A stretch of DNA of 57,277 nt from positions 1 to 57,277 of the forward strand of contig CAJOPH010000029.1 of the NCBI GenBank assembly GCA_905236805.1, given 5' to 3'. A program made the position numbers and the translations under genes. Source of the DNA: an uncultured Eubacterium sp. (GTDB lineage: Bacteria; Bacillota; Clostridia; Lachnospirales; Lachnospiraceae). The notes beneath the pieces are model-generated. The model was not told the DNA's origin and ran no database searches. It saw nothing but the letters and a program-made list of their open reading frames with translations. The number at the start of each line of letters is the position of its first letter. Position 1 is the first letter of the stretch. Positions 6,350-46,800 of the stretch are shown here, one piece after another.

Positions 6350-6455
6350 AGATCACAGAATGTGCCACGAAAATTCACATTACTCTGTTAATATTTAGTT
6401 CATCTTTACCGATATATACTAAGAATAATAGGTAACCATGAAAGGGGTGATCATT

Positions 6456-6674
6456 ATGGCAGTTACCCGTTCGAGTACGAACTACGAAGTCATAGAGATG
6501 ATGGACAAGCTGACCGATATCAGAGACACCGTGGCTCTGGAAAGGAAGAAGCGTCTCAAGGGCTCAGCTACCAAGACGATGGTGTCCACCTTCCATTCCG
6601 GTCAGGAGAACGCGAAATCCAAAAAAGCCAAAGACCCCGTATACAGTGGCGGCTTCGGCTCAAAGAAGTGGTGA
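6456..6674 (+). CDS. small basic hypothetical protein (72 aa)
   Basis: The ORF is in frame with the track ORF 6438-6674. ATG at 6456 lies 8 nt after AAAGGGG. The protein is lysine-rich with no recognisable family. Confidence 0.4.
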   Translation: MAVTRSSTNYEVIEMMDKLTDIRDTVALERKKRLKGSATKTMVSTFHSGQENAKSKKAKDPVYSGGFGSKKW

Positions 6675-6686
6675 TTTTGTGATTTT

Positions 6687-7205: not shown

Positions 7206-7231
7206 TTGTTCTTCCCTCAAAAAAATCCCAA

Positions 7232-7270
7232 AAATAAGGACACCCATAAAGGATGTCCTTAAGATTCATC
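7232..7270 (-). terminator. rho-independent terminator downstream of the SDR gene
   Basis: On the minus strand, TAAGGACA-(11 nt loop)-TGTCCTTA forms an 8-bp stem (7244-7270). It is followed by TTTTTGGGATTTTTTT. Confidence 0.6.
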
Positions 7271-7279
7271 AGATAACCA

Positions 7280-8047: not shown

Positions 8048-8123
8048 TGGATCATACCTCCTGTTTTGTATTCGCGTCCCCGGATATATAAGGGACTTTA
8101 ACCATACTCTATATTATACTCCT

Positions 8124-23637: not shown

Positions 23638-24678
23638 TTACTCCTCACCCAGTATGAGTTCCTTTATGCCCACGCCCTTACCCATGAACGGCATGGTAAG
23701 GTCGAATAATTTGTCCCCGTAACGCACCACGGGAAGGGAGAGGTTTGACTGGTTGATGGCGGATATCTCGGCTACCTTTCCGTTGGTCAAAACCACCTTT
23801 TTCCCGACATAATTTGAAAGGACGTTGTAAAGGAACTCACTTAGATACTTGGGATCATAGTCCGTGCCATTGTTCGAGGTCATGATGGCAGTGACCGTGA
23901 AGGGCTGCATGGCTCTTCTGTATGCGCGATTTGCGGTCATCGCCTCGAAGGTATCCACTATCGCGATTATGGATCCATAGCGCGTGATGTTCCCACCCTT
24001 AAGTCCCATCGGATAGCCCGATCCGTTAAACCTCTCATGGTGATTTAACGCAACGATACTGATGTCATCCTCGATGCCGGCTTCCTTGAGGATCTTCTGC
24101 CCGTAGATGCAGTGCTTTTTTATCATTGACATTTCCTGCTTCGTAAGCTTTCCTTCCTTGTCCAGTATGGAAAGGGGTATCCTCAGCTTCCCCACGTCAT
24201 GAACCAGTCCCGCCAGGAGTACATTTTCCTTATCACGGGGAGACATATTCAGCCAGGTAGCCAGCTCATAGCTGATGAGGGCCACGTTTATCGAATGCGC
24301 GAACACGGTACTGGAAAAGCTCATTAGCTTGTTTATGAAATGAAGGTAAATCTCGCTCTTTGGCGAATCATACACGACCTTGGCCAAAAGCTCAGCCTGC
24401 CTCTCCACATCCTCTTTGGTGGTAAAGATCACCCTGTTTACGGACTCCTCTATGGCCTCCACGAAAATCTTCTTCGTATCGGATACATCCATGGGGTCGG
24501 AATCGGGGTCATCCATGAGTACGGATACCTTCTTCACCCTCGCCCTGCGGATGACCCTGATGTCATTGTCCGTTAAGGACTTGCCACCGGGAATAAGATC
24601 GGTTCCCAGGGGAGTCTTTACCCTCTTGCCAAGAACCATACCTATTCTGATATCGCTAACAGGAATATCCACTATCAT
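23638..24678 (-). CDS. HD-GYP domain protein (predicted c-di-GMP phosphodiesterase)
   Basis: 346 aa with HDVGKLRIP and HHERFNGSGYPMG, i.e. the HD and GYP motifs. The beta-rich N-terminal domain resembles DUF3391. Confidence 0.85.
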   Translation of the reverse strand: MIVDIPVSDIRIGMVLGKRVKTPLGTDLIPGGKSLTDNDIRVIRRARVKKVSVLMDDPDSDPMDVSDTKKIFVEAIEESVNRVIFTTKEDVERQAELLAKVVYDSPKSEIYLHFINKLMSFSSTVFAHSINVALISYELATWLNMSPRDKENVLLAGLVHDVGKLRIPLSILDKEGKLTKQEMSMIKKHCIYGQKILKEAGIEDDISIVALNHHERFNGSGYPMGLKGGNITRYGSIIAIVDTFEAMTANRAYRRAMQPFTVTAIMTSNNGTDYDPKYLSEFLYNVLSNYVGKKVVLTNGKVAEISAINQSNLSLPVVRYGDKLFDLTMPFMGKGVGIKELILGEE

Positions 24679-26523: not shown

Positions 26524-27756
26524 CTATGTTATGTTAAGTCTTCCTATCTCGTATTCACTCATTGCACCCTTGTTGGAAAATCTTACCGGCTTCCCATCCC
26601 ACCTTCTTTTCATGCTTCCCATGATGTGGTAATTTCCCTTGGGAAGATCCGATACATCAAGGTCGTAGACCTTCTCCTTTCCGGGCAGTATCTCACGTGG
26701 GGATATGATGTAATCTTCCTTCGTGCCTGCCCCCTCCTTACCCTTTGCCACTATGGAAAGCTCTATCCCCCTGGAAGCAGTCCCGAATCCGGCGTTCCTT
26801 ATCTGGATCTTTACGTGCTTTGTTTTTTTGTCAAAAAAAACCTGGCGCACCATGAGGGCATATCCCAGCACCATGGTCAGCTCATCGTAGAGTGAATCTC
26901 CTTCCCCTTCCGCCAGCTTCATGTTTGGAGGCATCATCTTCCATTCATTTAATACCTTTTCGTCATAGGTGGAATTAAGGTACGAAACGTGCATGCTTTT
27001 CATGTCCTCTATGACGGCCTTTGGGCTAATGCCTTCCGTCCCAAAGAGGGCCTCCCCGCCATTGAAGGTATCTATGACGGCCCAGGACTGATACTCCATC
27101 TCTACCTTCCTGTGTCCTTCCTCATAGGTCCCAAGGTCAGTCTTTGAGCCAAACATCGCGTCATTAAAAAGGGGGATTTTTTCATCCTCCGGGAAAAGCC
27201 TCTTGAAAGACGGCCTGCGCAGGGCTATGGGGATGTCTTTGGCCAAAATCTCCCTTAGGTAATAATAGAGCTTTTCGATGTAGAGCTCCCCCGAATACCT
27301 GGAACCATGCATCTCTCCCCAGTTTCCGGTAAATATCCCCTGAAATACGAGGATCCGGTCCGAGAATTCATTTATCACCGGAGCGCAGTAATCCATATGA
27401 AAATAAATCTTTTCTATGGTGGGGGGCTCTTTCAAAGGCGCCTTTCCTTCCAGGTCGTAACATACCCTTAAGATGAGGTCCTTTTCATTGTCCGCAAAAT
27501 ACCTAAGGATGGTCCTTATTTCATCCCTTCCCCCCTCGGGCAGATCATGCCTCGCATAGTTTTCGAGGGAGATCTCCACAAGACACAAAGACTCTTCCTT
27601 CGGCATCTGTATGCAATAGCCTTCCTGGTCCTCATTGCCCAGGATGAACCGGTATACCCTGTACCATCCCCGACCGGGATTACCGGTCTTTTGGAGCCTC
27701 TCCGAAATCCTTCCGGGCTTAAATTCGTATTTGTTTCTGTTTCTTGAAAAAAACAT
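26524..27756 (-). CDS. DUF4874/DUF4832-like glycoside-hydrolase-fold protein, no signal peptide seen
   Basis: 410 aa with the NPGRGWY motif near the N-terminus. The layout is TIM-barrel-like followed by a C-terminal beta-sandwich. There is no N-terminal hydrophobic segment. Confidence 0.5.
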   Translation of the reverse strand: MFFSRNRNKYEFKPGRISERLQKTGNPGRGWYRVYRFILGNEDQEGYCIQMPKEESLCLVEISLENYARHDLPEGGRDEIRTILRYFADNEKDLILRVCYDLEGKAPLKEPPTIEKIYFHMDYCAPVINEFSDRILVFQGIFTGNWGEMHGSRYSGELYIEKLYYYLREILAKDIPIALRRPSFKRLFPEDEKIPLFNDAMFGSKTDLGTYEEGHRKVEMEYQSWAVIDTFNGGEALFGTEGISPKAVIEDMKSMHVSYLNSTYDEKVLNEWKMMPPNMKLAEGEGDSLYDELTMVLGYALMVRQVFFDKKTKHVKIQIRNAGFGTASRGIELSIVAKGKEGAGTKEDYIISPREILPGKEKVYDLDVSDLPKGNYHIMGSMKRRWDGKPVRFSNKGAMSEYEIGRLNIT

Positions 27757-27774
27757 ATTATTTAAGTTGATCCC

Positions 27775-28527
27775 TTAACGTTTTTTTAGAATTTTGTAAT
27801 AAAACACCACCGCACAAAGGTCGTATATCAGGTATATCATATACCATACGGGCTTTAGACCGGAATGCATACTCTTTCCCGTCTCCCTTTGGTACATCAC
27901 GGCGGGTATTTCCACCACCTTGTATCCCAAAAGCAGCATCTGGAGTATCATGTTCGCGTCCGGATAGGTCTCGTCAAAGTGGTTGAACTGCGAATAGTAA
28001 TAAAAAGCATCCCCGGAGAGCCCCTGAAGACCCGTGGTGGGATCATGGAGCTTTTTTCCCGTAAGGAGCCTTATTATGCCCCTGAAGAGCTTTACCGCAA
28101 ACATCTTTACCCCAGATACCGGAAAAGGGGATGACCCCTCCATATACCTGGACCCTAAGACTATGTCGGGATATTTCCCGTCCGCATCTTTCTCCCTTAG
28201 CTTTTGGTAGATTTTTAACACATTTGACGCATCGTGCTGTCCATCCGCATCCATCTGGATTACATAGCTGTAGTTTTTCCGCACCGCGTATTTGTAGCCT
28301 ATCTGGAGGGCGGAACCATACCCCATGTTGAAAATATGGTTCACCAGGCCTTTTGAGGATTCCCTCACGATATCCCCGGTCGAATCCCCTGATGCGTCAT
28401 TTATGACCAAAACATCCGAAAATCCTGAAATATCAGGCTCTGAAAGCCTCTCCAATACCTGCCTTATCGATCCTTCTTCATTGTATGCGGGAAGTATGAT
28501 CAGCACATCCTTGTCGCTCCTTATCAT
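27775..28527 (-). CDS. family 2 glycosyltransferase (polyprenol-phosphate glycosyltransferase-like)
   Basis: 250 aa with ILPAYNEEGSI, INDASGDST and QMDADGQHD (DxD), plus a C-terminal TM. The start overlaps the upstream GT4 stop (ATGA). Confidence 0.85.
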   Translation of the reverse strand: MIRSDKDVLIILPAYNEEGSIRQVLERLSEPDISGFSDVLVINDASGDSTGDIVRESSKGLVNHIFNMGYGSALQIGYKYAVRKNYSYVIQMDADGQHDASNVLKIYQKLREKDADGKYPDIVLGSRYMEGSSPFPVSGVKMFAVKLFRGIIRLLTGKKLHDPTTGLQGLSGDAFYYYSQFNHFDETYPDANMILQMLLLGYKVVEIPAVMYQRETGKSMHSGLKPVWYMIYLIYDLCAVVFYYKILKKR

Positions 28528-29765
28528 GCCATCAGTTCCCCAAGGTCATCTAACATTTCATCATCGTCATATACTATTTTTCCGGCATTTTCCGAAAGAA
28601 GGCTCCTTAATACCTCATCCTTTAGGAGCATCGCCACCTTATCAGCTATGTCCTTTGAATTTACCTTTGCGTAAAGGCCGCTCTTACCATCCTGAAGCTG
28701 CTCTTTGTTGCCGGGCGCAAGCGTAAGCACGATGGGAAGAGCAAGGGTTGCCGCTTCCTGGATGGCTATGCTCTTTCCCTCATAGCGCGAGGGCTGGACG
28801 TAGATATCTGCCTCCTTCATGTAAGGGTAGGGATTGTCCTTTCGTCCCATCAGGATGAAATCATCCTCCAGATTTCTTTCGGATATGAGGCGCTTTGTCC
28901 TTTCTTTCTCTTCACCGTCTCCTATCAGGTACCACCTTACGTTTGTGATGCCTGACTTCTTTAGGTTCCACATGGCGTCCACGGCAAGGTCTGCCCCTTT
29001 TTGGAAATGAAGCCTTGCCACGGTGACTATCCTCTTTCCCCCAAATCCGTCCCCAAACCCCGATCCCTCATCTGCCCTCTTCCTTATGAGATCTTGGTTT
29101 ATGAGGTTTGGAAAAATAAAAGTCTTCCCCATGCAGGATGGGTAAAACATGCAAAATGACGCCCTTACCTCATCGGATACGCAGTATATCCTGTCAAAGG
29201 CATCATAACACTCCCCGTCCATATCCTTCGTATATCCCGACCGGGCGTAATCTATGTGGACAAAGGCGGCCTTTTTTTCCGCATCCACATGATCTGCCAC
29301 ATAATAGCTCGACGCGCCTTCCACAAAGGCAATGGCCAGATCGTAATGTTTTTTCGGTCTCGGAAGCGAATCAGATATCGCCCTCCACAAAAGCTTGTCG
29401 GGCATGATATTTTTTTCACGAAGCATCTTTGAGCCGATCTTTGCCAGGTATAGACCATCCTTAAATATGGTCCCGTTCCTAAAGAGCAGGTGGGATACAT
29501 GCCGGGAAAGCTCTCTTCTCCCCCCTTCTTCAAGGACGGATTCGCTGCTGTAAAAAGGGGAAGGACCCATCTTGTTAAGAAGCCTTACCCCTTTTGGAAC
29601 TTCACCTAACATTTCACCCATGCCGGTCATAATGAGAAGGTCTATATCGTACCTTCGGATGAGCCTTTTTGTCAGCTCCAATGCGGCCATCTCCGCCCCC
29701 GCCTTTGAGAGCGTGTTCACCGCAAAAAAAATCTTCTTCCTGGTCATGTCTTCATCCCCTTTCAT
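28524..29765 (-). CDS. family 4 glycosyltransferase (GT-B, GT1 superfamily)
   Basis: 413 aa. The C-terminal half carries the EGKSIAIQEAATLALPIV (E-x7-E like) motif. Confidence 0.8.
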   Translation of the reverse strand: MKGDEDMTRKKIFFAVNTLSKAGAEMAALELTKRLIRRYDIDLLIMTGMGEMLGEVPKGVRLLNKMGPSPFYSSESVLEEGGRRELSRHVSHLLFRNGTIFKDGLYLAKIGSKMLREKNIMPDKLLWRAISDSLPRPKKHYDLAIAFVEGASSYYVADHVDAEKKAAFVHIDYARSGYTKDMDGECYDAFDRIYCVSDEVRASFCMFYPSCMGKTFIFPNLINQDLIRKRADEGSGFGDGFGGKRIVTVARLHFQKGADLAVDAMWNLKKSGITNVRWYLIGDGEEKERTKRLISERNLEDDFILMGRKDNPYPYMKEADIYVQPSRYEGKSIAIQEAATLALPIVLTLAPGNKEQLQDGKSGLYAKVNSKDIADKVAMLLKDEVLRSLLSENAGKIVYDDDEMLDDLGELMA

Positions 29766-30201: not shown

Positions 30202-31692
30202 TTATCCGTAGGCTGCCTCTCCTTCCACGTCATCTTTTTCTTCTTTTTTCTTTTTGTCCCTGTTGTATACCTCATCGGGAGGCCTTTGCCCCTTTCCTTT
30301 ATGGAGCAAAAGCCCCCTGCAGAAGATATGTGTCTCCATGTGTCTCTCGGCCCACCTCAGCCTGAAGTAGGCGATAAACCATCCCGCCAAAGACCCTGCG
30401 AAGACCCCCGCGCCATACCAGATATAGTCATACCGTATGGCCACCAGCGTGCCTATGATGGTAATACCCATGAACGTGCCCGATGTCAGTATCGCCCCAA
30501 ACGTATCGTTGAAATAATACAGGAATATTATTGCGGAATACATGATGAACAATATGAAATACGCGGACGCAAGAAGCGGGTATATCTGCATCACCAGACC
30601 CGATATCCCCAACAGCGGCAAGGTCACCATGAAGATAAGGAAGGATACGACGGACACTATGAACTGTATCCTGGCCAAAGACAAAAGCTCCGACGCCAAA
30701 GACAAAAACATATGGTCCTGCGCGGTCTTTACATCCAGATACCTTCCCCCTATAACGGCCTCGGAATATCCCTTGTAGCGGGAATGAAAATTCATCTCCA
30801 CCCTGGAGATAAAGATCACGGTGGCCGAGATGTTGGTGATAAGCGCTATAAATGAAGCCATGTCATATGGTTCGGCCGATACGAACACACCTGCCGTCAC
30901 CACCCTGAGGTCCGTGGTCCATACGATCATGTTGTGTATGTAAAGTCCCACGATATAGCATGTGTTTGACACTATGAGTCCCGCATAGGACTTGAAATAA
31001 GGAAGCACCCGGCGGTAATTGTGGCTGCTTTCCGTGAAATACTTCGTAAGCTGGGCATACATCAGCGACCCTATGAACAAAAGACCTATGTCCAGCCCCA
31101 TGAGCATGCCATATGTGATCTCCATGTCGAAGATCTTTACAAACAGCCAGGCCGCACCAAAGGCAAGACCCATTCCCAAGAGGTAGAACAAAGCCACCTT
31201 CCCGTAATCCTTTACGATGGAAAGGTATATCATGGTATAAAGCATCCATACGAGCGCGAAATATCCGACATATCCCATCAGCGAAAAGAAAGGATCCACC
31301 CCTCCCTTTACCACCTCCATAATACAGAAAGGTATGGCGGGGATGGCGCTTACTATGACATTTATGGATAAACCCGTATAATAAGCAGGCATGACATCCT
31401 GGTAGAGCTCATCATAGAGGAGGTCTGACATGTATCTGGAAAGTACCGCATTTAAGGGAGACGTGGTACAAAGCGCAAAAATAAACATGTACAGCACCGT
31501 CCCCGAAAACAGTTCCCTGACACTGTATGAGACGGTATCAAATCCCAAAAAATATTCCATGAGCACTATGTCCAGCATGATGATCACCATGGGTGCTATG
31601 GAAACCACCGAAGAGTATGCCACTCCCCCTACGTGGAAAAGAAGTGAGCGCTTTTCGTATATCCGGTTTAACCGTACTCCTATACCTGCCAT
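30202..31692 (-). CDS. pelG: exopolysaccharide Pel transporter PelG
   Basis: 496 aa, polytopic with about 12 TM. The N-terminus MAGIGVRLNRI is characteristic of PelG. It lies immediately downstream of pelF. Confidence 0.8.
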   Translation of the reverse strand: MAGIGVRLNRIYEKRSLLFHVGGVAYSSVVSIAPMVIIMLDIVLMEYFLGFDTVSYSVRELFSGTVLYMFIFALCTTSPLNAVLSRYMSDLLYDELYQDVMPAYYTGLSINVIVSAIPAIPFCIMEVVKGGVDPFFSLMGYVGYFALVWMLYTMIYLSIVKDYGKVALFYLLGMGLAFGAAWLFVKIFDMEITYGMLMGLDIGLLFIGSLMYAQLTKYFTESSHNYRRVLPYFKSYAGLIVSNTCYIVGLYIHNMIVWTTDLRVVTAGVFVSAEPYDMASFIALITNISATVIFISRVEMNFHSRYKGYSEAVIGGRYLDVKTAQDHMFLSLASELLSLARIQFIVSVVSFLIFMVTLPLLGISGLVMQIYPLLASAYFILFIMYSAIIFLYYFNDTFGAILTSGTFMGITIIGTLVAIRYDYIWYGAGVFAGSLAGWFIAYFRLRWAERHMETHIFCRGLLLHKGKGQRPPDEVYNRDKKKKEEKDDVEGEAAYG

Positions 31693-31700
31693 AACCTATC

Positions 31701-33137
31701 CTACCTAAACCCCTCGTAAATATTCCTGTAAGTATCTATCATATGCTCTATGGTATACTTTGACATGACCCGGCTGTATCCGGCTTCGCCCATCCTCTCC
31801 CTGGCCACCTCGTTCTGGGCAAAGAGGATCATCGCCTCGGATATCTCCTCGATGTTCATGATGTGGCAAAGAACCCCGGCGTCCCCGTATTCATCACCCT
31901 CCTCGCCATAGATAAGGCCCTTGCAGTTGCCCACATCCGTGGCTATGCAGGGCTTGTGGGCGGCGTACCCCTCCAGGATGGTAAGGGGCTGTCCCTCCGA
32001 GATGGATGTAAGTATCGTGCAGTCCATCCGGCCTAGGTACTCCTTTACGTCAATCCTTCCGGTAAACACCACATCCTCTACCTCAAGGGCATCGACCATG
32101 TCAAAGCATTCCTTTGCGTATTCCTCGTCCTCATCATACGATCCCATGATCCAAAGCTTCAGGGAGGGCTCCCTTTTTTTCGCGTAGTAAAAGGCCCTTA
32201 TCATGGTCTTTACGTCCTTGATGGGAGCTACCCTTAGGACCGCCCCTATATTGCAAAATCCCTCATCCTCGGGAAGCTTTCCCGGTATGTTTGAAAAATT
32301 CCGGGTGCGGATCCCGTTGGGCGTAACCTGTATCTTTGATACGGGAGCCCCCAGCTCTATCTGAAGCTCCTTTGCGTAGCCATACAGGCAGGTGATAAGG
32401 TCTGCCCGTTCATAGGCAAGGACCGACATTTTCTTGAACTGCTCTATCCATATGCTCTTGTAGATGCCCTGCACCCATTTGGCGGAGACCAGCTCTTCCT
32501 CCCTCTCCCTGGTGTAGATTCCGTGTTCCGACACCAAAAGCCCCGCATTGTGGCGGTACTTTCCCATGGCACCTATGACCCCGGCGTATCCCGTGGCCAC
32601 GCAGTGGTAGATGTCAGCCTTTGGCACATCAAACTTCATGATCAAAAAGAGCGGCAGGTAGATGGATCTCATGGTCCACAGGTAATCGGAAAAAACCGCC
32701 TCCGAATGAAACCTCCTGTAGCTCTCCTTTACTGCATTCATAAAATCCACGCCCATGAGGAGGCCGTTCACCGAAACCCATGGCTTCTTGATGAAATCAA
32801 ACAGTGTATCCCAGTCAGGGTTCTCATTTACTATGAGGGATACCAGGGCCTTATATTCGTCTTTCTTCATGCGCTTTTTGTGCCAGGAATTGGAACGTTT
32901 TATTCCCCACTTGGAGTCTTCCTGTGACCAGTCAAAGTCGGAAAGGTACAGCTCGTATACCGAACTTACGTTTTCAGGCAGTTCGTAGACAAACTTCCCC
33001 CGCATCTTCCTGTCTGCCGCTATGGCGCAGATGATGAACTCATGCTCCGGGAAGGAATTTATCATATTGTGAATCCAGCTGGAGACGCCGCCTACCACAT
33101 ACGGATAGCACCCCTCCGCAATCATGCAGATCTTCAT
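31701..33137 (-). CDS. pelF: Pel glycosyltransferase PelF (DUF3492 N-terminal region plus GT4)
   Basis: MKICMIAEGCYPYVVGGVSSWIHNMI is the typical PelF N-terminus, with a GT4 C-terminal half (EGQPLTILEGYAAHKPCIATDVG). The track start at 33167 is a GTG that overlaps the upstream gene. ATG at 33137 is preferred. Confidence 0.85.
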   Translation of the reverse strand: MKICMIAEGCYPYVVGGVSSWIHNMINSFPEHEFIICAIAADRKMRGKFVYELPENVSSVYELYLSDFDWSQEDSKWGIKRSNSWHKKRMKKDEYKALVSLIVNENPDWDTLFDFIKKPWVSVNGLLMGVDFMNAVKESYRRFHSEAVFSDYLWTMRSIYLPLFLIMKFDVPKADIYHCVATGYAGVIGAMGKYRHNAGLLVSEHGIYTREREEELVSAKWVQGIYKSIWIEQFKKMSVLAYERADLITCLYGYAKELQIELGAPVSKIQVTPNGIRTRNFSNIPGKLPEDEGFCNIGAVLRVAPIKDVKTMIRAFYYAKKREPSLKLWIMGSYDEDEEYAKECFDMVDALEVEDVVFTGRIDVKEYLGRMDCTILTSISEGQPLTILEGYAAHKPCIATDVGNCKGLIYGEEGDEYGDAGVLCHIMNIEEISEAMILFAQNEVARERMGEAGYSRVMSKYTIEHMIDTYRNIYEGFR

Positions 33138-33138
33138 A

Positions 33139-35007
33139 TCATTTAAAGAGGAACGTATTTTCCTCACCCTTCATGGAAATCGTAAGTTTACTGCCATCTG
33201 TTTTTATCAGGTACGCCCCTTCGTCTATCTTGCGGAAGGTCGCGCCCTTTACTTTTTCTATCTCTCCTTCATGGGTTCTGAAGATGAAATAATTGTGGTC
33301 GGCAACGGTATCAAGCTTTACGACTATCGTGCCATCATCCTTGACCTTTTCGGTATAGGACATCGTGAGGAAGGCCCTTGCCCTGTATCCCAGCTCGGAA
33401 AGGGACACTTCCGTAAAGCATTCATAGGGTTTCCAGTAATCCACCGTGTAACCGGAAAATTTCTTGAAATAATTCTGCCACTCATCCTCATCGGAATTGG
33501 GGTCGGGATAGATTATCGAAGAAAGATCACCCTCTATGCACGAATACCCCAAGGCGCTCTCCAATGACCTTTCCAGAAGGTCATCTTTGTATGTGTGTCT
33601 TCTCGCGTCAGCCGTGGCCGAAATATCTATCACATCGTCATCGGCATAGAAGAGATATCCGTTTTCCTCATCATATTCGGAAAGAAGGGTGCAAACATCC
33701 TTGAAACCTGCCTCCTTAAGGAGCTCTATAGCCTCCTCCTTGTCCTTCTTTCCCACGTAGGCGGTATTTATCACATAGTCGGGAAAATACTCATTGAAAA
33801 AATCGCAATCTTCCTCAAGGGCAGATCCTATGTCAGATACATCATCCCTTTCAAGGCATACGCCGGCCTCCCCGTCAACCTCCCTTATCAGCCTTAAAAA
33901 ATAGTCCAGGTATTCTTCGTTTAAGGGATTGTTTGACGATGACCTTATCCTCCCCGAAAACATGCACGCCACCCTGGCGTCCGTGGTGGTGGCAACAGAC
34001 GCTATCCCCGGCCACACGAGGTCTCTTTGTACCACGTGGGAATTCCTGGAGTATATGCCCTTTAGCACATCGTCATTTTCCAGGGAAAGGGTGGGATAGT
34101 TCGTCATGACCAGTCCCTGGGCGTTTACTATGGGGTAGATCACATAGTCATCGCTTTCGTATTCAAATCCATAAAGCAGGCCCAATCCTATCCTGCTCTC
34201 CAGAAAATCTGCGTAAACCACATAGACAAAGGCGTCATTGTAGGTATTTCTCCATATCATGGGAGGAGGGACCTCACCGTCATCCACCTTGTAGGAGGAT
34301 TCATCCACATGGGCGCACATGAACGTCTTAGTACCTGATGTCAAGGTGTACCAGTTCATGTAACTAAGGTCAAGGTCATCCCTTTTCTCCTCCTCCTCAT
34401 TATAAGGATCGTAGATGACCCCTCCTCCCAGAAGCAGTCCCTCGTAGACTTCGGCTCCTTTCATCTTGATGCTTGCGGACCTTTTGGCATATATACCCAG
34501 TATCTCCGTCAGGTCTTTTGAAGAATCCAGTATGGATTCATCGGGCAGCCCCGAAAAAATAAGATTCACCTTCCTCTTGGTTATGTGCTTCAGCGAAGCT
34601 ATGTCGGAATCGGATGTAACTGTCGATGAATCCACCAGACAAAATTCCGGGATATTTTTCTTTCCTATGCCCTTGATGTAGGAGTCGGCAGCAGACAGCG
34701 ACGTGAACGAACGTATGTTCTTTCTTTGGTACCTGCACCATTCATTAAGCAGGGAAGCCGTGTCAGTATTTTTTCCCACGTAGATGCAGTACTCTGTACC
34801 GCCTGCCGCATCCCCCGATTCGGAAAGGTCTGTCACCTCAAACACCCTGTCTTTGGTCATCCCCACTCCCGCGCCGTCGTACCCATCGAACTCATTTTCG
34901 TAGTAATCCGAAAGCACGGCCTTTGCGGTGGATGAAAACATCATCAGGAAAAAGACCACCATCATGACTATGGTAATAGTAAAAAAATTCCTTCTGGATA
35001 TCTGCAT
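33139..35007 (-). CDS. DUF2194-like extracytoplasmic protein in the PelA(deacetylase) position
   Basis: 622 aa with an N-terminal signal anchor (FFTITIVMMVVFFLMMFSS). It sits between the pelE-like gene and pelF, as pelA_DA does in Gram-positive pel operons. Confidence 0.55.
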   Translation of the reverse strand: MQISRRNFFTITIVMMVVFFLMMFSSTAKAVLSDYYENEFDGYDGAGVGMTKDRVFEVTDLSESGDAAGGTEYCIYVGKNTDTASLLNEWCRYQRKNIRSFTSLSAADSYIKGIGKKNIPEFCLVDSSTVTSDSDIASLKHITKRKVNLIFSGLPDESILDSSKDLTEILGIYAKRSASIKMKGAEVYEGLLLGGGVIYDPYNEEEEKRDDLDLSYMNWYTLTSGTKTFMCAHVDESSYKVDDGEVPPPMIWRNTYNDAFVYVVYADFLESRIGLGLLYGFEYESDDYVIYPIVNAQGLVMTNYPTLSLENDDVLKGIYSRNSHVVQRDLVWPGIASVATTTDARVACMFSGRIRSSSNNPLNEEYLDYFLRLIREVDGEAGVCLERDDVSDIGSALEEDCDFFNEYFPDYVINTAYVGKKDKEEAIELLKEAGFKDVCTLLSEYDEENGYLFYADDDVIDISATADARRHTYKDDLLERSLESALGYSCIEGDLSSIIYPDPNSDEDEWQNYFKKFSGYTVDYWKPYECFTEVSLSELGYRARAFLTMSYTEKVKDDGTIVVKLDTVADHNYFIFRTHEGEIEKVKGATFRKIDEGAYLIKTDGSKLTISMKGEENTFLFK

Positions 35008-35022
35008 ATCTTAAACCCTTTT

Positions 35023-36150
35023 TTAGGCAAACGCCCTTATTATCTCCAAGGTAGCCTTGTCTATGACGATGTTCGTCTGCCTTAGATCGCTCATGACTTC
35101 CATGAACCTTTCCTTGTCGCTCTTTTTGAAGTAAAATTTCAGCCTGCAGGTGTAAGAGATAAGGTCATCAGGATGCGTAACGGCGCATCTCATGCACCAC
35201 TTTTCGCAAAGATCCATTTCCCCGCAGTTCATAAGGTGGTTCGTGATCCACTCATAATGCCTTGCAAAAAGGATCTCGGGGGAGACGTTAAACAAAAGCT
35301 CCGCTACCTCCGAGAGCATGACGGAATAAGAAGCCTGCTCCATCGGGGTGAAAACCCCCTGTCGGAGAAACGCGTCCATGTACTTGATAAGGGCCGAGCC
35401 ATACTGCATCCAGTCCTCCCTGGGTCTTTCCTCATCCGCTATCGCCTCTCCGTTCACCTCCTTCTCCGCGACTATCTCCATGAGTGCCCTTTGCTCCTTA
35501 AGGAAGCTGTATACCTCTTCCACATTGGCCCTAAAGACATTCAGCTCTGCTGAAAGCACGGAGGCAGCGTAGTGGGCGGTCTCGGTGTCCTTGGAATTAA
35601 GGGCTTCCATGATGACCCTTAGGGACTTGTCCACATCGTCCCCCCTCAGGATGTTTAGCATCAGGGCACGCAGGTTACTCGAGTCAGTGACAGCCAGAGC
35701 CTCCTCCAGAGGTACCAGGTTTCTCTCCCTCTCATCATCTCCACGCTGCTTTACCGTCTCTTTCTCCTTTTCGAACAGCACATCGTAAAGGTCTACCTCT
35801 TTCCTGAAGAATATCTTTCTCAGGATGGTGCCAAAACCCACGACCACCACGACCACCACGGGAACGACCAGCATCATCACACAGGTCATAATGCAGCGTT
35901 TCCTGTCGAATACTTTATCTATCCTTTCTTCCTTGATATCGGAAGGGAGCATGAGGTCGGGAATCTCGTCCCTTTCATCCGGCATCCTAAAGTCAATCTT
36001 TTCTTCATTGGATCCTGCAACGGTGGCTTTTTCGGCCTCCTTTGCCCTTACCTTGAACCTGGGGCGGATAGCCACACCGTAGATGAGATATGCCAGGGCA
36101 CAAAGATCATTTACGACTAAAACAATGATGCAGATAACGGTCCCGCTCAT
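35023..36150 (-). CDS. pelE: PelE-like membrane protein (two TM plus helical repeat region)
   Basis: 375 aa with TM1 at about aa 5-27 and TM2 at about aa 86-110 (VMMLVVPVVVVVVVGFG), followed by an all-helical C-terminal half. The call rests on position after pelD and on architecture, not on a motif. Confidence 0.5.
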   Translation of the reverse strand: MSGTVICIIVLVVNDLCALAYLIYGVAIRPRFKVRAKEAEKATVAGSNEEKIDFRMPDERDEIPDLMLPSDIKEERIDKVFDRKRCIMTCVMMLVVPVVVVVVVGFGTILRKIFFRKEVDLYDVLFEKEKETVKQRGDDERERNLVPLEEALAVTDSSNLRALMLNILRGDDVDKSLRVIMEALNSKDTETAHYAASVLSAELNVFRANVEEVYSFLKEQRALMEIVAEKEVNGEAIADEERPREDWMQYGSALIKYMDAFLRQGVFTPMEQASYSVMLSEVAELLFNVSPEILFARHYEWITNHLMNCGEMDLCEKWCMRCAVTHPDDLISYTCRLKFYFKKSDKERFMEVMSDLRQTNIVIDKATLEIIRAFA

Positions 36151-39100
36151 GCCGATACCCCCCGGTTCATGGAGATGATCGCTATCTCCGAAACCTTGTC
36201 ATCACGGACGGACCTTATGGCATACCGACCCCGGGTCCTGCCCTTTTTCCTGGCGTCCGAATCCGTCCATTTGTTGACGCCTGCCGGAAGCTCCGCGGTC
36301 CTTTTCCACTTGCCGGAGTGTGGATTGTACCTGAATATCTGATAGCCATCGCATCCCGGTGTCTCCTCCCAGGCTATCGTGGGTGCGCCTAATGACCTGC
36401 TGATCACGGCCTTTGGCGGAAGCAGGCCTATCTTGAATGGCAGGGATTTTTTACCGGTATATTTTCCCTGACCATGGATGACGACTATCCCGGTACCTAT
36501 CGAACGATTGTTCTCGTATGAAAGGACATAATCCTCCCCATGCTCCAAAATCCGAAGTCCGTAGCGGACCGTGATCTTCGGAGCCACGGGATCTCCCGTG
36601 AAAGGATAGATATCGTCCAAGTCAAATACCACAACATCCTCCACCGAATAGCAGATCTTAAAGTCTTTTTTGATCTCCCCGACAAACCTCCCCATACCTT
36701 CTATGGTGAGTGTACCGGTGCCCGGCCTGGTATTGTTTACGTAGGCGATCTCGTAATCATGCCCCCTGCGGAGCAGGTAATCGCCTATAGCCATGGTAGG
36801 CTTGGGCTGTATGGGACGCCCCGTAAATCCATAAACATCCTGAAAATCCAGCACCCTGACCATGGAGAGGTCTATGGGATCATCCCCCTCGGGGATATCC
36901 CCACCGTGAAGGGCCGCAAGGGACATCTTTGACAGATCTCCCGCCAAAGCCTGCGCAATGTTGCTCTCCTCCACTATCTCATCCACGGAAGCCTCCCCCC
37001 TCATGCCAAGGATCTTGGTCCTGTCTTCCTTGGGGATTTCCATGGCACCCCATGTACCCGCTTCCTGAGAGGAATCTGCCTCCCCGCCATCCGGGACGAT
37101 CTGCGGCTCTATCTGTTCTATCTCCTGCTCCAGGAGATAGAACACATCCTGTGTCTCCATGACCGTCGTGCCTATTCCCTTTTTGTCAAACCTGTCTATT
37201 ACGAACTTGGCGGCCTCCCTGTCGGTATTCGAAAGGAGAAGGTAATAATTTTTGTCTGACAAAGATCCCATGTAATCGGATGACCTTATCATATGGGATG
37301 CCGTCTCCAGCTCCCGTGTGTCCCCGACATTTTTGAAATTCAAACGCAGTACAGTGGCTATGGTCAGCTCCCTTCGCTGGGCATTCAAAAACGCCCGCAC
37401 CAGGGAGGTGAAAGCCCCGGTCTCCAGGATCCTTGTTCCCTCCAGATACCTTTGCTGCTCCAATGCGTCCATGAAATTGTTCGCGCGAACCACCGCGTTT
37501 TGGATCAAAAGACCTATGACCTTCAGCATGTTCGCCTGCCCCAGGTTCATATGATCCCAAGGAATCCCCCAGACCATGACTATCATACGCATCTTTTCCT
37601 CGGAGAAAATGGCATTTGCCATGAGGGGATAACGCTCGTCCATGGTCTTGTTCACATAGACCCTGTCATTGATAAAGTCCTCATAAAGATCTGTGTATTC
37701 AGGATATTTTATTGAATTTCCCAAAGACCTTGCTATGGGACTGGTCGCGGCAAAGAGCCTTGCGTAATCCGAATTTTCCACGGTATATATGGCAACGTCC
37801 TGGGTTCCCACCAGCATCTCCACTATCTCGGCCGCAAAAAACAAAACGTCCTCAGGCTCGTAATGATCCAGTGAAGATGTGATCGAATATACCTTTCCGA
37901 AAGAATCTTCCTGATTTACTATCTGATTCTCCAAGACATTCTTTATCTGGACATTGGTCGTATTTATCTCCGATATATCCTCCCTCTGCCTGGTCAGGTA
38001 GTCTATCTCCACCTCGTCCTCATCACGGATGACCTTCAGGCGGTCTTTGATATATCCCACTACCAGTCCCACTATGAACAGCTGCGCTATCCACACGTAG
38101 GTATTGTAATCCAGGACCACATCGAACTGTGACCTGTCATACTGCTGCCTGTACAGGTAGCCCGCGGTAGCCAAAACGCCCGAAAACGCTGCCTGCTGCT
38201 GCCCGAATACCACGGCGAACAAAAGCACATACAAAAGCAAAAAGTCCAGATTAGCGAAATACTGCGAATCCGTCGCCCTGTTATTGAGCATGAAAAACGG
38301 GATGAACATGACCGCGTTTTCTATGAACGGGATGAGCTTGAAGATGATGTCTGCCACCTGGGCCTTTATCCCCTGCGCCCTGTCTTCTTTATTTTTCTTT
38401 TTTGTACCGAAATATTTCGTGTAATGGTGCTTCACGGCAGACGCTAACTGCGGCAGAGTCTTTTGGGGATCGTCGAACACCCTGGTACCAAACTCCGTAT
38501 GGAAACAACTCCCATCCAAAACCAGGCGGAAGGGTGCGCCGACATTGCGCTCTTCCACCTTTACCTCCCTGCCAAGGCCTTCCGCCAGAAGGTTTGCCAC
38601 GGCCGTCTCGTTTACCACCTTCCCTGAGGAAAGGTGGTAGAGATCCTTTTCGAAGCTCTCGGCCGTCATCACCCTGTATATGTAATCCACCGCATCAGAT
38701 GAGTGAAGCATGGAAAATTCGTGCCGGGAATTCGAATGGATCATCCCGTCGTCCAAGGCCTCCTTTAACATCTCCCTGAACATGGGGGGCATGTCGTAGG
38801 ATGATGCGGGGGTGCCGTAAAGGTGGTCAAGGCGGAGCGATATGGTCTCCATATTCCCGAAGGACCCAAAGTTCTTTACGGTCATCTCCCCCTGGCGGAT
38901 CAGGTTGTTCTTGGGGTTGGAGATGGTGGGTACCTCCGATTCTTCGGTATAGTTCTCTGTTGAGGGATTTTCGAACACCTGTTCGGATGAGAGGTACAAG
39001 AACCTCACCTTTTTGTTCATGGAGCTTAACGAAGTCAGTATGTTTACGAGTCCCGTAGAGTACTCCAATATATGCCTTTGCTCTACCTGATCCGGGAAAT

Positions 39101-39329
39101 TTGAATCATACGCGCCCATGAAAATGACGGCATCCGGACGGATGCTCTCAAATATCTGAGGTATCGATTCATTTACGTATGAGAAATTGTATTGCTCGAA
39201 AACCTTCGGTATACGCTTTTTTACATGATCCGTACCCGTAAGGACATAGATTCTGTCGCCTTCCTTGGAAAGCTTGTCTATCAGGGCATCACTCAGATAG
39301 CTCCTTGCTCCTACTAAAGCTACATCCAT
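36147..39329 (-). CDS. pelD: PelD-like c-di-GMP receptor fused to an N-terminal SDR/epimerase-like domain and C-terminal Ig-like repeats
   Basis: 1060 aa. Aa 1-310 have an extended-SDR fold (DAVIFMGAY, LYLSSEQV, RLDHLYG) with no YxxxK anywhere, and VGARSYLS replaces GxxGxxG. Four TM follow at about aa 325-440, then a GAF-like region and a degenerate GGDEF-like region with RSSD (37275-37286). Two 71-aa Ig-like repeats lie at 36648-36860 and 36423-36635, followed by a beta-rich tail. Confidence 0.75.
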   Translation of the reverse strand: MDVALVGARSYLSDALIDKLSKEGDRIYVLTGTDHVKKRIPKVFEQYNFSYVNESIPQIFESIRPDAVIFMGAYDSNFPDQVEQRHILEYSTGLVNILTSLSSMNKKVRFLYLSSEQVFENPSTENYTEESEVPTISNPKNNLIRQGEMTVKNFGSFGNMETISLRLDHLYGTPASSYDMPPMFREMLKEALDDGMIHSNSRHEFSMLHSSDAVDYIYRVMTAESFEKDLYHLSSGKVVNETAVANLLAEGLGREVKVEERNVGAPFRLVLDGSCFHTEFGTRVFDDPQKTLPQLASAVKHHYTKYFGTKKKNKEDRAQGIKAQVADIIFKLIPFIENAVMFIPFFMLNNRATDSQYFANLDFLLLYVLLFAVVFGQQQAAFSGVLATAGYLYRQQYDRSQFDVVLDYNTYVWIAQLFIVGLVVGYIKDRLKVIRDEDEVEIDYLTRQREDISEINTTNVQIKNVLENQIVNQEDSFGKVYSITSSLDHYEPEDVLFFAAEIVEMLVGTQDVAIYTVENSDYARLFAATSPIARSLGNSIKYPEYTDLYEDFINDRVYVNKTMDERYPLMANAIFSEEKMRMIVMVWGIPWDHMNLGQANMLKVIGLLIQNAVVRANNFMDALEQQRYLEGTRILETGAFTSLVRAFLNAQRRELTIATVLRLNFKNVGDTRELETASHMIRSSDYMGSLSDKNYYLLLSNTDREAAKFVIDRFDKKGIGTTVMETQDVFYLLEQEIEQIEPQIVPDGGEADSSQEAGTWGAMEIPKEDRTKILGMRGEASVDEIVEESNIAQALAGDLSKMSLAALHGGDIPEGDDPIDLSMVRVLDFQDVYGFTGRPIQPKPTMAIGDYLLRRGHDYEIAYVNNTRPGTGTLTIEGMGRFVGEIKKDFKICYSVEDVVVFDLDDIYPFTGDPVAPKITVRYGLRILEHGEDYVLSYENNRSIGTGIVVIHGQGKYTGKKSLPFKIGLLPPKAVISRSLGAPTIAWEETPGCDGYQIFRYNPHSGKWKRTAELPAGVNKWTDSDARKKGRTRGRYAIRSVRDDKVSEIAIISMNRGVSA

Positions 39330-39342
39330 AGTATTTTACCTG

Positions 39343-40437
39343 CTATATTACTTTTAAAAGATTCTCCCACTCGGAGACGATCTTTTCAATGCCAAAATCT
39401 TCGACCCTTACCAGCGCATTCCCGGCGAGATGATCCCTCACATCAGCATGATCCATAAGATATCTCATCTTCTCAGGAAACTCCTCATCACCACGCACGA
39501 GGTATCCGTTTTTCGCATCATCTACTATCTCACGCGGACCCGTACGCACATCCCTTGCTATCACGGGCACCCCGTGGGAAAAAGCTTCCAAAATCACCAT
39601 TGGAAAACCCTCTGTCCTGGAAGGAAGGACAAAGCAGTAAGCATCCCGGTAGAGCCTGTCCATGTCAGCTACACGTCCAATGAGAAATGCGTTCTTTAGG
39701 CCATTGTTCTTTATGTATTTGGACAACCTCCCGTATTCAGGACCATCGCCCGCGATAATGAGCCTAAAGCCCCTGCTTTTTGCCTCATCCTGAATCCGAT
39801 CCCAGGCCCAAAGCAATGCGTCAAAGCCCTTTCTCTTTATGAGGTGACCTGCCGAGAGGAAATAGGGATGAGGGTTTTGGGAAAAGGAGGCTTTGGAGAC
39901 GCCCTTACCCTCTTTGGAAGGAGGAAGGGATGGATTATATATCTGAGCCAGCCTTCCATCCTTAAATCCCATCCTGCTGATATGAGCCCTTCTGTCTTCC
40001 TCCGTGAGGACTATAGTCCTTACCGCATGCTTTTTTGCAAAAGCCTTCGCCAGAATCCTGTGCGGATAGTCCCTGAGGAAGTAATAATTAAAATGCTCCC
40101 ATGAGAGTATCTTCACGGGGAGGTCTCCCGCCGCTAGGGAGCTGTATATCGTAAGCACGCTGTCAATATCCACTATCACGTCCACACAGCTGCCTTTAAG
40201 GTATTTGCGAAGGCGGGCTACGACCACAGGTCCGTCCATGACGAAAGAACCCCTGCCCCTCCGGATAACGTGGGATAATGTTATATTTTTATTTAACACA
40301 AAGCGGGGACGGGCTTTGTAGACGCTCAATGCACATACCTCATACCCCTTTTCCGACAGGGCGTTGGCTATAAGCGTCCCTACCCTCTCCGTACCTCCGC
40401 CATTTCCAATGTTCCCGAAAAAAAAGCATATTTTCAT
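39343..40437 (-). CDS. family 4 glycosyltransferase, first gene of the pel-type locus
   Basis: 364 aa with MKICFFFGNIGNGGGTERV and EGFPMVILEAFSHGVPVIA (E-x7-E). There is no Shine-Dalgarno sequence in the 15 nt before the ATG. Confidence 0.8.
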   Translation of the reverse strand: MKICFFFGNIGNGGGTERVGTLIANALSEKGYEVCALSVYKARPRFVLNKNITLSHVIRRGRGSFVMDGPVVVARLRKYLKGSCVDVIVDIDSVLTIYSSLAAGDLPVKILSWEHFNYYFLRDYPHRILAKAFAKKHAVRTIVLTEEDRRAHISRMGFKDGRLAQIYNPSLPPSKEGKGVSKASFSQNPHPYFLSAGHLIKRKGFDALLWAWDRIQDEAKSRGFRLIIAGDGPEYGRLSKYIKNNGLKNAFLIGRVADMDRLYRDAYCFVLPSRTEGFPMVILEAFSHGVPVIARDVRTGPREIVDDAKNGYLVRGDEEFPEKMRYLMDHADVRDHLAGNALVRVEDFGIEKIVSEWENLLKVI

Positions 40438-43806: not shown

Positions 43807-46800
43807 TCACACCAGCATCCGCTTTGCTTCCTCTATGACTTCATCATACTCCCTCATTACCGCATCATGCCCATGACGTATGTCATCTATCCTCTCCTCT
43901 TTCCCGGCCTTTTCGAGCTCATAGGCATGGTCGGCAAACTCCATGGCCCCTATGGTCTTTGAAGTGCTCTTTACGGCATGTATCTGCACGGTATAATTCC
44001 GTATGTCTCCCTCCTCCAGATATTTCTCAAGGGCTCTCATCTTCTCATCTTTTTCCTCCACATAGGTCTTTAGCATCTCCTTGTAAAAATCCGGATCTTC
44101 CATGCAATACCCAAGCCCTACTTCCATGTCAATATGCTTTTTCCCATCTTCTTTTTCTTCAGGCAGACCGTCTGAAATATCCTCCTTAGACTCAGAGGTC
44201 TTGGAAACATTTGCAGCCTCCGGGGTCTTGGGAACATCTACAGCCTCTTGGACCTCTCGGGTCTTCACATCCCCTAAAGTCTCTCGGGTCTTTGCCTCCC
44301 CTGAAGGCTCTTTAGTCTTTTCGCTTTTTGATGATTTCAAAGATACCTTTTCCACCGGCAGATATTCCTTCAGGATCTTTTCCATTGCCCTGACTTCTAT
44401 GGGTTTTGAGATATAGTCGGTAAAACCCTCCTTCAGATACTCCTCCCTGGCACCCGATATTGCGTTGGCGGTCATCATGATGACAGGCATTGAGCCATCA
44501 AGAAGACCCTTATTTTGCATCTCATGCAGTGTCTCCACACCATCCATCTGCGGCATCATATGATCGATAAAGAGAATGTCGTATTCACCTGCCGCTGTCT
44601 TTTCTATTGCCTCCCGGCCCGAGATGGCCGTCTCTACCTGCATGGCAGAACGCTTCAAAAGACCCTTTGCCACCTTGAGGTTCATATTGTTATCATCAAC
44701 GACAAGAACCTTCGCGTCGGGAGCGTAAACATATTCGACCTCAGATGTTTTCTCCCCGGATGCCGCCAGCGTCTTCTCATAATCCCCGATAGGCGTATCA
44801 TCCACTATCTGCTGCCTTATGTCAAAATAAAAGTTAGAGCCTTCTCCGTAAACGCTGTCAAGCTGAAGGGAAGAGTCCATCATAAGAAGGAGCTTTTGCA
44901 CGATGGAAATTCCAAGCCCCGTCCCTTCTATTGCCCTGTTTTTCTCCATATCCAGTCTGGCGAAGGACTCAAACAAGGTCTCCCTGTCCTCATCCCTGAT
45001 ACCCATGCCGGTATCTTCCACCTCCACATGGAGGATAATATATTCAGCCGTTCGTCCCGCGGAATTTATGCGCAAAGTCACGCTGCCTTCCTGCGTATAT
45101 TTCACGGCATTTGTAAGTATATTCGTTATGACCTGCCGTATCCTCACATCATCCCCGTAGAGCGACTTGGGCAGATTGGAATCTATTTCCAGCTTAAGCA
45201 AAAGATCCTTCTTCTCCGCGCGCTCACGCACCATGTTTACGAGGTCATTTACCATGGACGCGGTATCATACTGTACCGGGACGATCTCCATTTTTCCGTC
45301 CTCTATCTTTGAAAAGTCCAGGATACTGTTGATCAGCGTAAGAAGTGTTCTTCCCGCATTTTGGATATTGTCGGAGTATTCCAGAACGTCCTCGTTGTCC
45401 GTCTCCCTAAGGATCATCTCGTTCATTCCAAGGATGGCATTTATGGGGGTTCGGATCTCATGTGACATCTGCGCAAGGAACTTTGATTTTGCCTCCCCCG
45501 CATATCTTGCGTCATCAGCGGACTTTTGAAGGACACTTACAGCCCTCTTCTGCCGTCTGTCGATCATGCGAAGCAGCATGACGGTAACCGTGATCCCCAC
45601 GCCAAATATGATCAAAAAGACGATATCGTATCCGACGAGACTCCCATAGATCACTTTCCAGTTCTTTATACAGAAAATGGAAAATCCGGTTGTTTCATCC
45701 GTGACTGCATATACGGCCTTGTAATTTCCGTCATAATCCTTCAGCAAAACCGTCTCATCGGCATAAGCCGCATCAAGGTAGCCCGCCTCCTCCAAAGAAA
45801 CAGCCCTTTCCTCGGTCATCTGATATTCGCCGTCGGGATGGTTTATGATATTTCCATCAGAATCCGCAATGAAGGCATACCCCTCGTCAGTGTAGCTTGA
45901 CGCAAGGATCTCCGTTAGCTTGTCCAGGAAAAAGTCGATTCCGAAGATTCCAAGATAGTTGCCGTTCTTGTCATAAACCCTCTTTGATATCGTGACGCAG
46001 TACGCCCCCACCTGGGAATCAAAATATGGCGTGGTGATGTAGAAGCCATCCTCCTTTTCCGACTCCATGCTTCCTATATACCACTGCCTCTCCTCCATGT
46101 TCCATCCCTCTTCCGGCTCCCATCCGTTGTTCATGATAACGATATGCTCCGCCTTAGGGTTGGTCATGTATGACACGGAAATATCCTCATACTGTACGGT
46201 GATATCGTTAAGCCACTCCACGCAGGCCTCATAGTCATCAAGGATCGTGGGGTTCGTGGAAATGTAGCTTACGAACATATCAAGCACGCTCTTTTGCTCT
46301 ACGACCCACGAATCGAGTTCTGAGACATATCCTTCCGCCTCCCTCTCCATCCGGGTATTTCCCCAGTTTTTCATGATAGTGGTAGATATGCTGATGCAAA
46401 GGATCATGGTGAAGGCAAGCAATGTAACGATTCCCGCCGCGGCTTTCATCTTGGATTTATCCGAAAGCTGTATATCCTCTGCTTTGGAAGAACCGTATCT
46501 TTTTTTTCGTGTGGTTTTTTTCCCTTTGTCTTTTTCGCTCTCTTTCAGAAAGGACAGTCTTCCAAATGAATCACGCAGGCTTACGGAAGACTTCTTTAGT
46601 TCTCCCATATATTCGTCGGGATCGTCGCTGGATAAAAACATCCGGTAATCACTCTTTTTTACCACCTCGTCCATCGGAGCCTTCATCTCATCTACGATAT
46701 CCGAGATGGCCTGTTCCGTCCTAAACAGGCGCCTTTCGGCTCTTTTTCTGTATTTTTGCCCGATAATATACAAAAGGATGATCCCTGCCATAAGGCATAT

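Follow-up and report, generated by a model that had tools for sequence, protein, structure and literature searches.

The 57,277-nucleotide stretch of DNA analysed here (the window: contig CAJOPH010000029.1 of assembly GCA_905236805.1, from an uncultured Eubacterium sp. of the Lachnospiraceae) encodes on its minus strand a 1060-residue protein that is probably PelD, a subunit of a Pel synthase of the Lachnospiraceae. It belongs to the class whose domain of the short-chain dehydrogenase/reductase (SDR) type is degenerate, and it carries, in a single lineage, a predicted cytoplasmic C-terminal extension of two immunoglobulin (Ig)-like repeats and a fibronectin type III (Fn3)-like domain. Residues 1–745 are an ordinary member of the published Gram-positive extended-length PelD class. 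The original prediction, made before any database search, had already named the protein PelD-like, and its architecture, its I-site, and the surrounding pel operon bear this out. The same prediction held the C-terminal Ig array to be new, which stands for an Ig-Ig-Fn3 extension (hereafter the cassette) confined to a single lineage. The parts of the protein are as follows.

36147..39329, minus strand: PelD-like open reading frame (ORF), 1060 aa, ATG start, stop codon within the coordinates
38430..39329, minus strand: degenerate extended-SDR (epimerase-like) domain, aa 1–300
39291..39314, minus strand: degenerate Gly-rich dinucleotide motif VGARSYLS, aa 6–13
38886..38918, minus strand: remnant of the YxxxK catalytic site, NPKNNLIRQGE, aa 138–148
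38046..38363, minus strand: membrane region with four hydrophobic segments, aa 323–428
37452..37913, minus strand: GAF-like domain, ~aa 473–626
37110..37421, minus strand: degenerate GGDEF-like domain, ~aa 637–740
37275..37286, minus strand: I-site RxxD, R682-S-S-D685
37245..37259, minus strand: GG(D/E)EF-equivalent SDKNY, degenerate, aa 691–695
37191..37193, minus strand: R713, third candidate I-site arginine, 28 residues past D685
36885..37097, minus strand: acidic linker, probably disordered, aa 745–815
36651..36860, minus strand: Ig-like repeat 1, aa 824–893
36426..36635, minus strand: Ig-like repeat 2, aa 899–968
36150..36425, minus strand: Fn3-like domain, aa 969–1060 (92-aa tail)

The receptor part of the protein follows its membrane region. 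An AlphaFold2 model of aa 432–745 (16 sequences; mean predicted local distance difference test score, pLDDT, 73.9) consists of a long helix and two successive alpha/beta domains, and Foldseek matched it in the PDB to PHY/GAF-GGDEF diguanylate cyclases (6ET7, 5LLW, and 4ZMU), to isolated GAF domains (3OOV and 3CI6, with a template-modelling score of 0.62–0.65 on the target), and to GGDEF proteins (3EZU and 6ZXB). Of 16 orthologues, 9 matched PF00990 weakly, with a best E of 0.0015. On these three lines of evidence the protein has the succession of a GAF and a degenerate GGDEF domain that characterizes PelD, and the GAF-like and GGDEF-like regions of the original prediction are backed.

The I-site was located by aligning the family profile to the diguanylate cyclase 3IGN (E 0.14), in which RQSD faces RQSD and S-D-G-x-L is the counterpart of GGEEF. 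The RQSD of 3IGN stands five residues before GGEEF, and the RSSD of the window protein aligns there, which confirms the I-site predicted at 37275–37286. The GGDEF site had rightly been called degenerate, but had been read at SLSDK; the equivalent residues are SDKNY, two further on. Among 152 homologues, R682 is present in 152, D685 in 151, and R713 in 150, so that both alignment and conservation give the protein the RxxD plus a further arginine that mark a PelD. The 28-residue spacing from D685 to R713 equals that from D362 to R390 in the PleD I-site. Judged on these residues, the GGDEF I-site R682/D685/R713 most likely binds cyclic di-GMP (c-di-GMP).

The ORF also lies in a co-directional row of genes, ordered GT4, pelD, a pelE-like gene, DUF2194, pelF, and pelG, followed by GT1, GT2, and DUF4874/DUF4832.

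39343..40437, minus strand: GT4 glycosyltransferase gene, directly upstream of pelD
35023..36150, minus strand: gene in the pelE position, 375 aa
33139..35007, minus strand: gene in the pelA(DA) position, DUF2194
31701..33167, minus strand: pelF, DUF3492 and GT1
30202..31692, minus strand: pelG, PF16933 at E 4.6e-126
26524..29765, minus strand: accessory genes GT1, GT2, and DUF4874/DUF4832, on the same strand as the pel genes

The order pelD-E-A(DA)-F-G is the published Gram-positive arrangement (PMC7112168), and because genes for pelG, pelF, DUF2194, and the pelE position adjoin the ORF in that order, we assign it to a Lachnospiraceae-type pel operon; it thus has the pelE, pelF, and pelG neighbours of a pelD gene. 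A Pfam scan of the 375-aa product in the pelE position gave no match. This gene is 44% identical to the gene in the same position of a rumen relative, L003, and its ATG overlaps the pelD stop codon as ATGA, an overlap also found in L003.

At the N-terminus, Pfam matched aa 5–223 to the Epimerase family (PF01370, E 1.6e-11; 44.5 bits against a cutoff of 20.9) and also reported RmlD_sub_bind. A family profile built from 20 homologues matched the UDP-GlcNAc 4-epimerase 3M2P (E 2.9e-13) and then dozens of other extended SDRs. The Rossmann-type SDR fold that had been proposed for this domain is therefore supported by both the PF01370 and the epimerase-structure matches. Its catalytic equipment is largely gone. 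VGARSYLS was correctly recognized as the glycine-rich motif and is degenerate by comparison with 3M2P: GARSYLS pairs with GGTGFLG, and the second and third glycines are lost. Across the 152 homologues, the first glycine is kept in 148, the second column holds Ser, Asn, or Gly, and the third is mostly Met, none of the residues listed for it (150 of the 152 homologues) being Gly; the GxxGxxG of an active, dinucleotide-binding SDR is absent.

Alignment to the YGVSK stretch of 3M2P places N141 in the tyrosine column and R145 in the lysine column, and neither column holds Tyr or Lys in any of the 152 homologues, while G147 and E148 of the remnant are conserved. The serine of YLSS is retained (S114 invariant, S115 in 134 of 152), so that only Ser survives of the Ser/Thr-Tyr-Lys triad of active SDRs. 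The original prediction stated that the domain holds no YxxxK at all: there is indeed none at the catalytic position, but a YFGTK string occurs at aa 306–310, within the Lys-rich linker before the first transmembrane (TM) segment and off the catalytic position. It had also proposed an alignment check for a Tyr/Lys pair and an NAD motif, and in the 152 homologues neither is intact. From these columns the SDR module is, as predicted, a catalytically dead epimerase-like domain, a loss that is family-wide and not specific to the window; the module may serve as a scaffold or bind a nucleotide-sugar. Extended-length PelD proteins of streptococci, clostridia, and actinobacteria are described as having an N-terminal epimerase-like domain with altered cofactor-binding and catalytic residues, probably inactive (PMC7112168). 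The fusion with a dead catalytic site, which had been thought unreported, was thus already described by Whitfield et al. 2020 (PMC7112168).

This core is widespread. A full-length protein search recovered the PelD core (aa 1–745) in 1867 cluster representatives of ~725 aa. The best 119 of the 1867, the query aside, are 621–759 aa long (nearly all 714–759), cover 59–69% of the query (mostly 68–69%), and come from Lachnospiraceae and Eubacterium metagenome-assembled genomes (MAGs). Complete orthologues in species-representative genomes (n = 77) mostly measure 720–742 aa, with two of 780 aa and one of 823 aa. The window protein shows the defining fusion of the Gram-positive degenerate-SDR class of PelD, an SDR domain with altered residues joined to TM-GAF-GGDEF; a 2025 paper on Streptococcus intermedius (PMC12345266) cites four classes of PelD, set apart by GGDEF, SDR, and degenerate SDR.

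Three PelD orthologues, P0277 (805 aa), P0284 (794 aa), and P0281 (766 aa), are 40–80 aa longer. We rejected them as fusion intermediates: their insertions lie in or after the SDR domain, before TM-GAF-GGDEF, and they carry no C-terminal domains.

Hydropathy of the protein itself (19-residue scan) peaks at aa 325–348, over a double-width stretch at 355–387, and at 404–429, and averaging over the 152 homologues with a 9-residue window gives four segments at ~329–347, 362–373, 383–391, and 414–424. An invariant GQQQ turn separates segments 2 and 3, and these middle segments are short (9–12 residues above threshold). The four TM helices of the original prediction are therefore seen as four hydrophobic segments, of which segments 2 and 3 may represent two helices or form a re-entrant hairpin; the predicted number of crossings is even either way. 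Lys/Arg-rich stretches flank both ends of the region, with mean K+R counts of 4.2 before the first segment and 3.8 after the last, against 1.5 in the first outer loop and 2.0 in the second. There is no hydrophobic segment after aa 430 (hydropathy scan; maximum Kyte-Doolittle value 1.42, inside the GAF domain), and no signal-like N-terminus, the ORF beginning with the 310-aa SDR domain. Because a signal peptide is missing, the crossings are even, and no later hydrophobic segment follows, the part C-terminal to the membrane region, cassette included, is predicted to lie in the cytoplasm. The cytoplasmic location originally proposed for the repeats is thereby supported.

The C-terminal extension covers aa 746–1060, and its cassette begins after a linker in which aa 745–820 (76 residues) hold 18 D+E against 5 K+R. 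In close relatives, acidic tails of lesser length occupy this position. The two predicted repeats are confirmed: they share 30 of 70 identities, a score reached by none of 2000 shuffles. The AlphaFold2 model of aa 816–1060 (pLDDT 94.3) comprises three beta-sandwich domains, and its Foldseek matches include titin Ig-Ig-Fn3, NCAM2 Ig-Fn3, the Fn3 triplets of fibronectin, the grappling-hook protein GhpA, and Big_2 domains, so that model and matches agree on a beta-sandwich fold. What had been described as a beta-rich tail resolves into an Fn3-like domain, alignable with the Fn3 that ends the giant secreted proteins and P0288, the latter carrying PF00041. No model in Pfam or NCBIfam recognizes the Ig-like repeat, the nearest being sub-threshold CBM_X2 matches in multi-copy relatives alone; both repeats keep every position conserved in their family.

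An exhaustive HMMER search of 1.84 billion representatives returned 21,006 relatives of the cassette at E ≤ 1e-3. The best are giants of 1,000–7,600 aa with up to 47 repeat copies and 28–39% identity, and a signal-like N-terminus was detected by a crude test in 127 of the top 150, most others being fragments or having weaker signal peptides. Smaller relatives also bear choline-binding repeats, ChW repeats, or a type IX secretion system (T9SS) sorting domain. The expectation that this repeat type is usual on surface proteins thus holds, the family being otherwise found in secreted proteins, whereas the PelD ORF has no signal peptide of its own. Two repeats plus tail match the extreme C-terminal ends of the giants P0190, P0145, P0171, and P0177, which end in a GYEIYR...YKVRAY Fn3 domain. 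P0288, with a signal peptide, leucine-rich repeats, Big_2, and then Ig-Ig-Fn3-Fn3, is colinear with the cassette at 35% identity over 222 aa. The cassette is therefore homologous to the repeats and terminal Fn3 of Firmicute secreted proteins.

The 1060-aa fusion ORF is real. A second assembly (L001, ENA contig ERZ28573572) codes for the identical protein and shows a single mismatch to the window in 7481 bp, and the window is ~950 bp longer between the pelD core and pelE than the closest orthologue (L002, 61% identity). G+C content at third codon positions (GC3) is even along the gene, and we rejected a foreign composition of the cassette on that ground. A donor within the window was likewise rejected, since searching the window with the cassette by tblastn revealed no paralogue.

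The fusion was found in one strain only, in two assemblies. No other PelD carries the cassette among the top 120 of the 1867 clusters or among the 77 orthologues of species-representative genomes, and the survey of homologue architectures that had been suggested turned up no identical arrangement in the 119 closest clusters or the 77 genomes. A scan of JGI metagenomes with aa 701–1060 found no relative. Word-indexed protein searches gave weak negatives, as neither returned the protein itself: the cassette alone had no matches, and the junction-spanning aa 580–1060 retrieved ordinary PelDs and one secreted relative. The 50%-identity representative library likewise listed no 1060-aa self match and could hide rare PelD-Ig fusions. 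Nothing relevant came from a literature search combining PelD with Ig-like.

The two closest relatives carry disordered tails alone, of 15 aa in P0002 and ~90 aa in L003. L003 is an uncultured rumen Lachnospiraceae MAG (962), and its PelD (positions 6001–8472, 61% identity, 823 aa), joint-closest among the orthologues, ends in a low-complexity tail, first acidic and then Lys-rich, with no folded add-on. The PelD C-terminus in this clade is therefore variable and extendable.

Residue composition separates the cassette from its secreted relatives. T+S+N make up 12.4% of the window repeats, the lowest value, against 29.2 ± 5.8% in secreted relatives and 17.7% in the PelD core, and Arg 6.2% (99th percentile) against 1.5% and 5.2%, respectively, in a comparison set of 999 two-repeat segments from the top secreted relatives that is biased to giants of other taxa. 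This composition, together with the lack of a donor above ~40% identity, is suggestive of something other than a very recent accident, and it would fit, again only suggestively, evolution of the cassette inside a cytoplasmic protein.

We propose that c-di-GMP binding at the I-site would activate the PelD-E-F-G complex and license polymerization by PelF and export by PelG, by analogy with the PelD proteins of Pseudomonas aeruginosa and Bacillus cereus. In one lineage, the disordered acidic PelD tail would have been extended in frame by an Ig-Ig-Fn3 cassette, a descendant of the C-terminus of a secreted multi-repeat protein; the cassette would now be tethered at the cytoplasmic face by an acidic linker of ~70 flexible residues. 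The cassette would most plausibly serve the synthase complex as an arm that binds proteins or acts as a spacer; it may also be without a role so far. That it has a real function we consider doubtful, and we hold only tentatively the specific proposal of a captured surface-protein cassette adapted to the cytoplasm as a tethered output or adaptor arm of the c-di-GMP receptor.

It is possible, if somewhat unlikely, that the extension is instead a functionless passenger, an accidental in-frame fusion between pelD and the 3' end of a gene for a surface protein that is tolerated on a disordered tail while PelD works as in its relatives. Its restriction to one strain, the variable and apparently unconstrained tails of close relatives, and the lack of any nameable partner or function all agree with such an accident. 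Yet no close donor was found, the best relatives being 33–39% identical; all fold-determining positions of the repeats are kept and the model is very confident; and 330 codons are still free of stops. The composition has moved far from that of secreted relatives toward the cytoplasmic core, and this shift would point to long residence or selection in a cytoplasmic context, against a passenger.

An assembly or sequencing artefact, in which contig chimerism or an overlooked stop codon or frameshift joined pelD to unrelated DNA, is very improbable: the sequence is metagenome-derived and the two carrier assemblies may come from related samples, but the ORF is identical in both with 1 mismatch in 7.5 kb, synteny continues in either direction, with GT4 upstream, pelE downstream, and the ATGA overlap kept, GC3 is even, the frame is open for 990 bp, and no DNA repeat or paralogue that could cause a misjoin is present in the window. 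We find it just as hard to credit that the cassette lies outside the cell, through an odd crossing count or C-terminal cleavage and export, and there binds Pel or the cell wall, which is presumably what its secreted relatives do. In favour of this, the proteins that bear the repeat family are overwhelmingly secreted, and the short TM2 and TM3 can be read as a single element. An odd topology would, however, put GAF-GGDEF and its invariant I-site outside, where c-di-GMP is absent; both ends of the membrane region have K/R-rich flanks, nothing hydrophobic or signal-like follows aa 430, and the composition is unlike that of secreted relatives.

Several results weigh against the assignment of the protein as a PelD with a cytoplasmic cassette. 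Pfam found no PelD-type, GAF, or GGDEF match in the window protein at E ≤ 1, and a PDB sequence search with the whole protein returned nothing relevant and no entry recognized as PelD. Family profiles retrieved from the PDB either SDR enzymes or the one cyclase at E 0.14, with no characterized PelD, and no PelD entry was recognized in the Foldseek top 50 for aa 432–745. As no characterized PelD was recovered by sequence, the basis of the assignment is architecture, I-site, and synteny. With TM2 and TM3 short, four is a predicted helix count; a GGDEF cyclase gene was not found in any part of the window, and the cassette is known from a single strain.

Two HD_5 proteins of the HD-GYP type are encoded in the window, at 23638–24678 and 50672–52060, and are consistent with c-di-GMP signalling in the source organism. 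The former (minus strand) is a candidate c-di-GMP phosphodiesterase, encoded downstream of the pel cluster at a distance of a few genes. The DUF4874 and DUF4832 protein (26524–27756, minus strand) comes after two extra glycosyltransferases beyond pelG. DUF4832 is a known pel accessory gene in clostridia and streptococci (PMC7112168), and its usual companions, CotH, polyphosphate polymerase, and DUF4956 (PMC7112168), were not seen around the DUF4832 gene in the window.

A 1578-aa ORF (43807–48543, minus strand) joins an N-terminal DegV (fatty-acid-binding) domain to dCache sensors and a hybrid histidine kinase (HisKA, HATPase_c, REC, and Hpt), an unusual fusion of DegV and kinase. Downstream of it on the same strand are the following ORFs.

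48536–50593, minus strand: second hybrid kinase
50672–52060, minus strand: REC-REC-HD_5 (HD-GYP-type) protein
52122–55208, minus strand: third hybrid kinase

Far from the pel genes, an adh_short gene (7280–8047, minus strand) has 76% DNA identity to a gene at positions 1–683 of the Eubacterium sp. RUI539 contig (L002). It lies 2 kb from pelD in that contig and 31 kb from it in the window; the intervening region has therefore been rearranged or expanded.

What is new here is only the single-lineage Ig-Ig-Fn3 extension; the core is one of thousands of Lachnospiraceae PelD proteins and adds nothing beyond the class described in 2020. The add-on would be a small, clean case of domain capture across the membrane boundary, in which an otherwise secreted repeat type now appears on the cytoplasmic end of a second-messenger receptor, with a composition shifted toward that of cytoplasmic proteins. 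If the arm is indeed adapted, PelD would have gained an effector module, recruiting for example an enzyme or a cytoskeletal partner to the Pel synthase, and this would be the first case of the clostridial repeat type working inside the cell. A functional cassette may point to a further partner of the Gram-positive Pel synthase; a neutral passenger would show the PelD C-terminus to be highly tolerant, and hence useful for tagging.

The best structural match to the cassette is titin A168–A170, also Ig-Ig-Fn3, a cytoplasmic protein-binding scaffold array; being eukaryotic, 9% identical, and without sequence relationship, it serves as an analogy only. Firmicute secreted [Ig-like]n-Fn3 proteins (P0288 and the giants P0190 and P0145) have a colinear Ig-Ig-Fn3 at 30–39% identity and share its conserved positions (YTG, P, DY, Y, NN, G, G, and F-I). 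They have N-terminal signal peptides and cell-wall-binding or sorting domains, whereas the window cassette follows a cytoplasmic receptor and is depleted in Thr, Ser, and Asn and enriched in Arg.

Among PelD proteins, those of P. aeruginosa and B. cereus ATCC 10987, for which c-di-GMP binding has been demonstrated, have four TM helices, a GAF, and a degenerate GGDEF domain. They resemble the window protein in their membrane anchor, GAF, degenerate GGDEF, and RxxD with a further Arg, and their genes likewise adjoin pelE, pelF, and pelG; in contrast, they have no SDR domain and no C-terminal extension, and sequence similarity was not detectable in the Pfam and PDB sequence searches. The class IV PelD of S. 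intermedius (PMC12345266) shares the degenerate N-terminal SDR, the membrane region, and the GAF, but has no GGDEF and cannot sense c-di-GMP (PMC12345266), whereas the window protein keeps both GGDEF and I-site. Closest of all is the clostridial and actinobacterial extended-length PelD of Whitfield et al. 2020 (PLoS Pathog 16:e1008281), which has the same domain order as aa 1–745, the same loss of SDR cofactor-binding and catalytic residues with the RxxD I-site kept, and the same pelDEA(DA)FG operon with a DUF4832 accessory gene. That class has no described member with folded domains past the GGDEF, to which the window protein adds ~315 residues.

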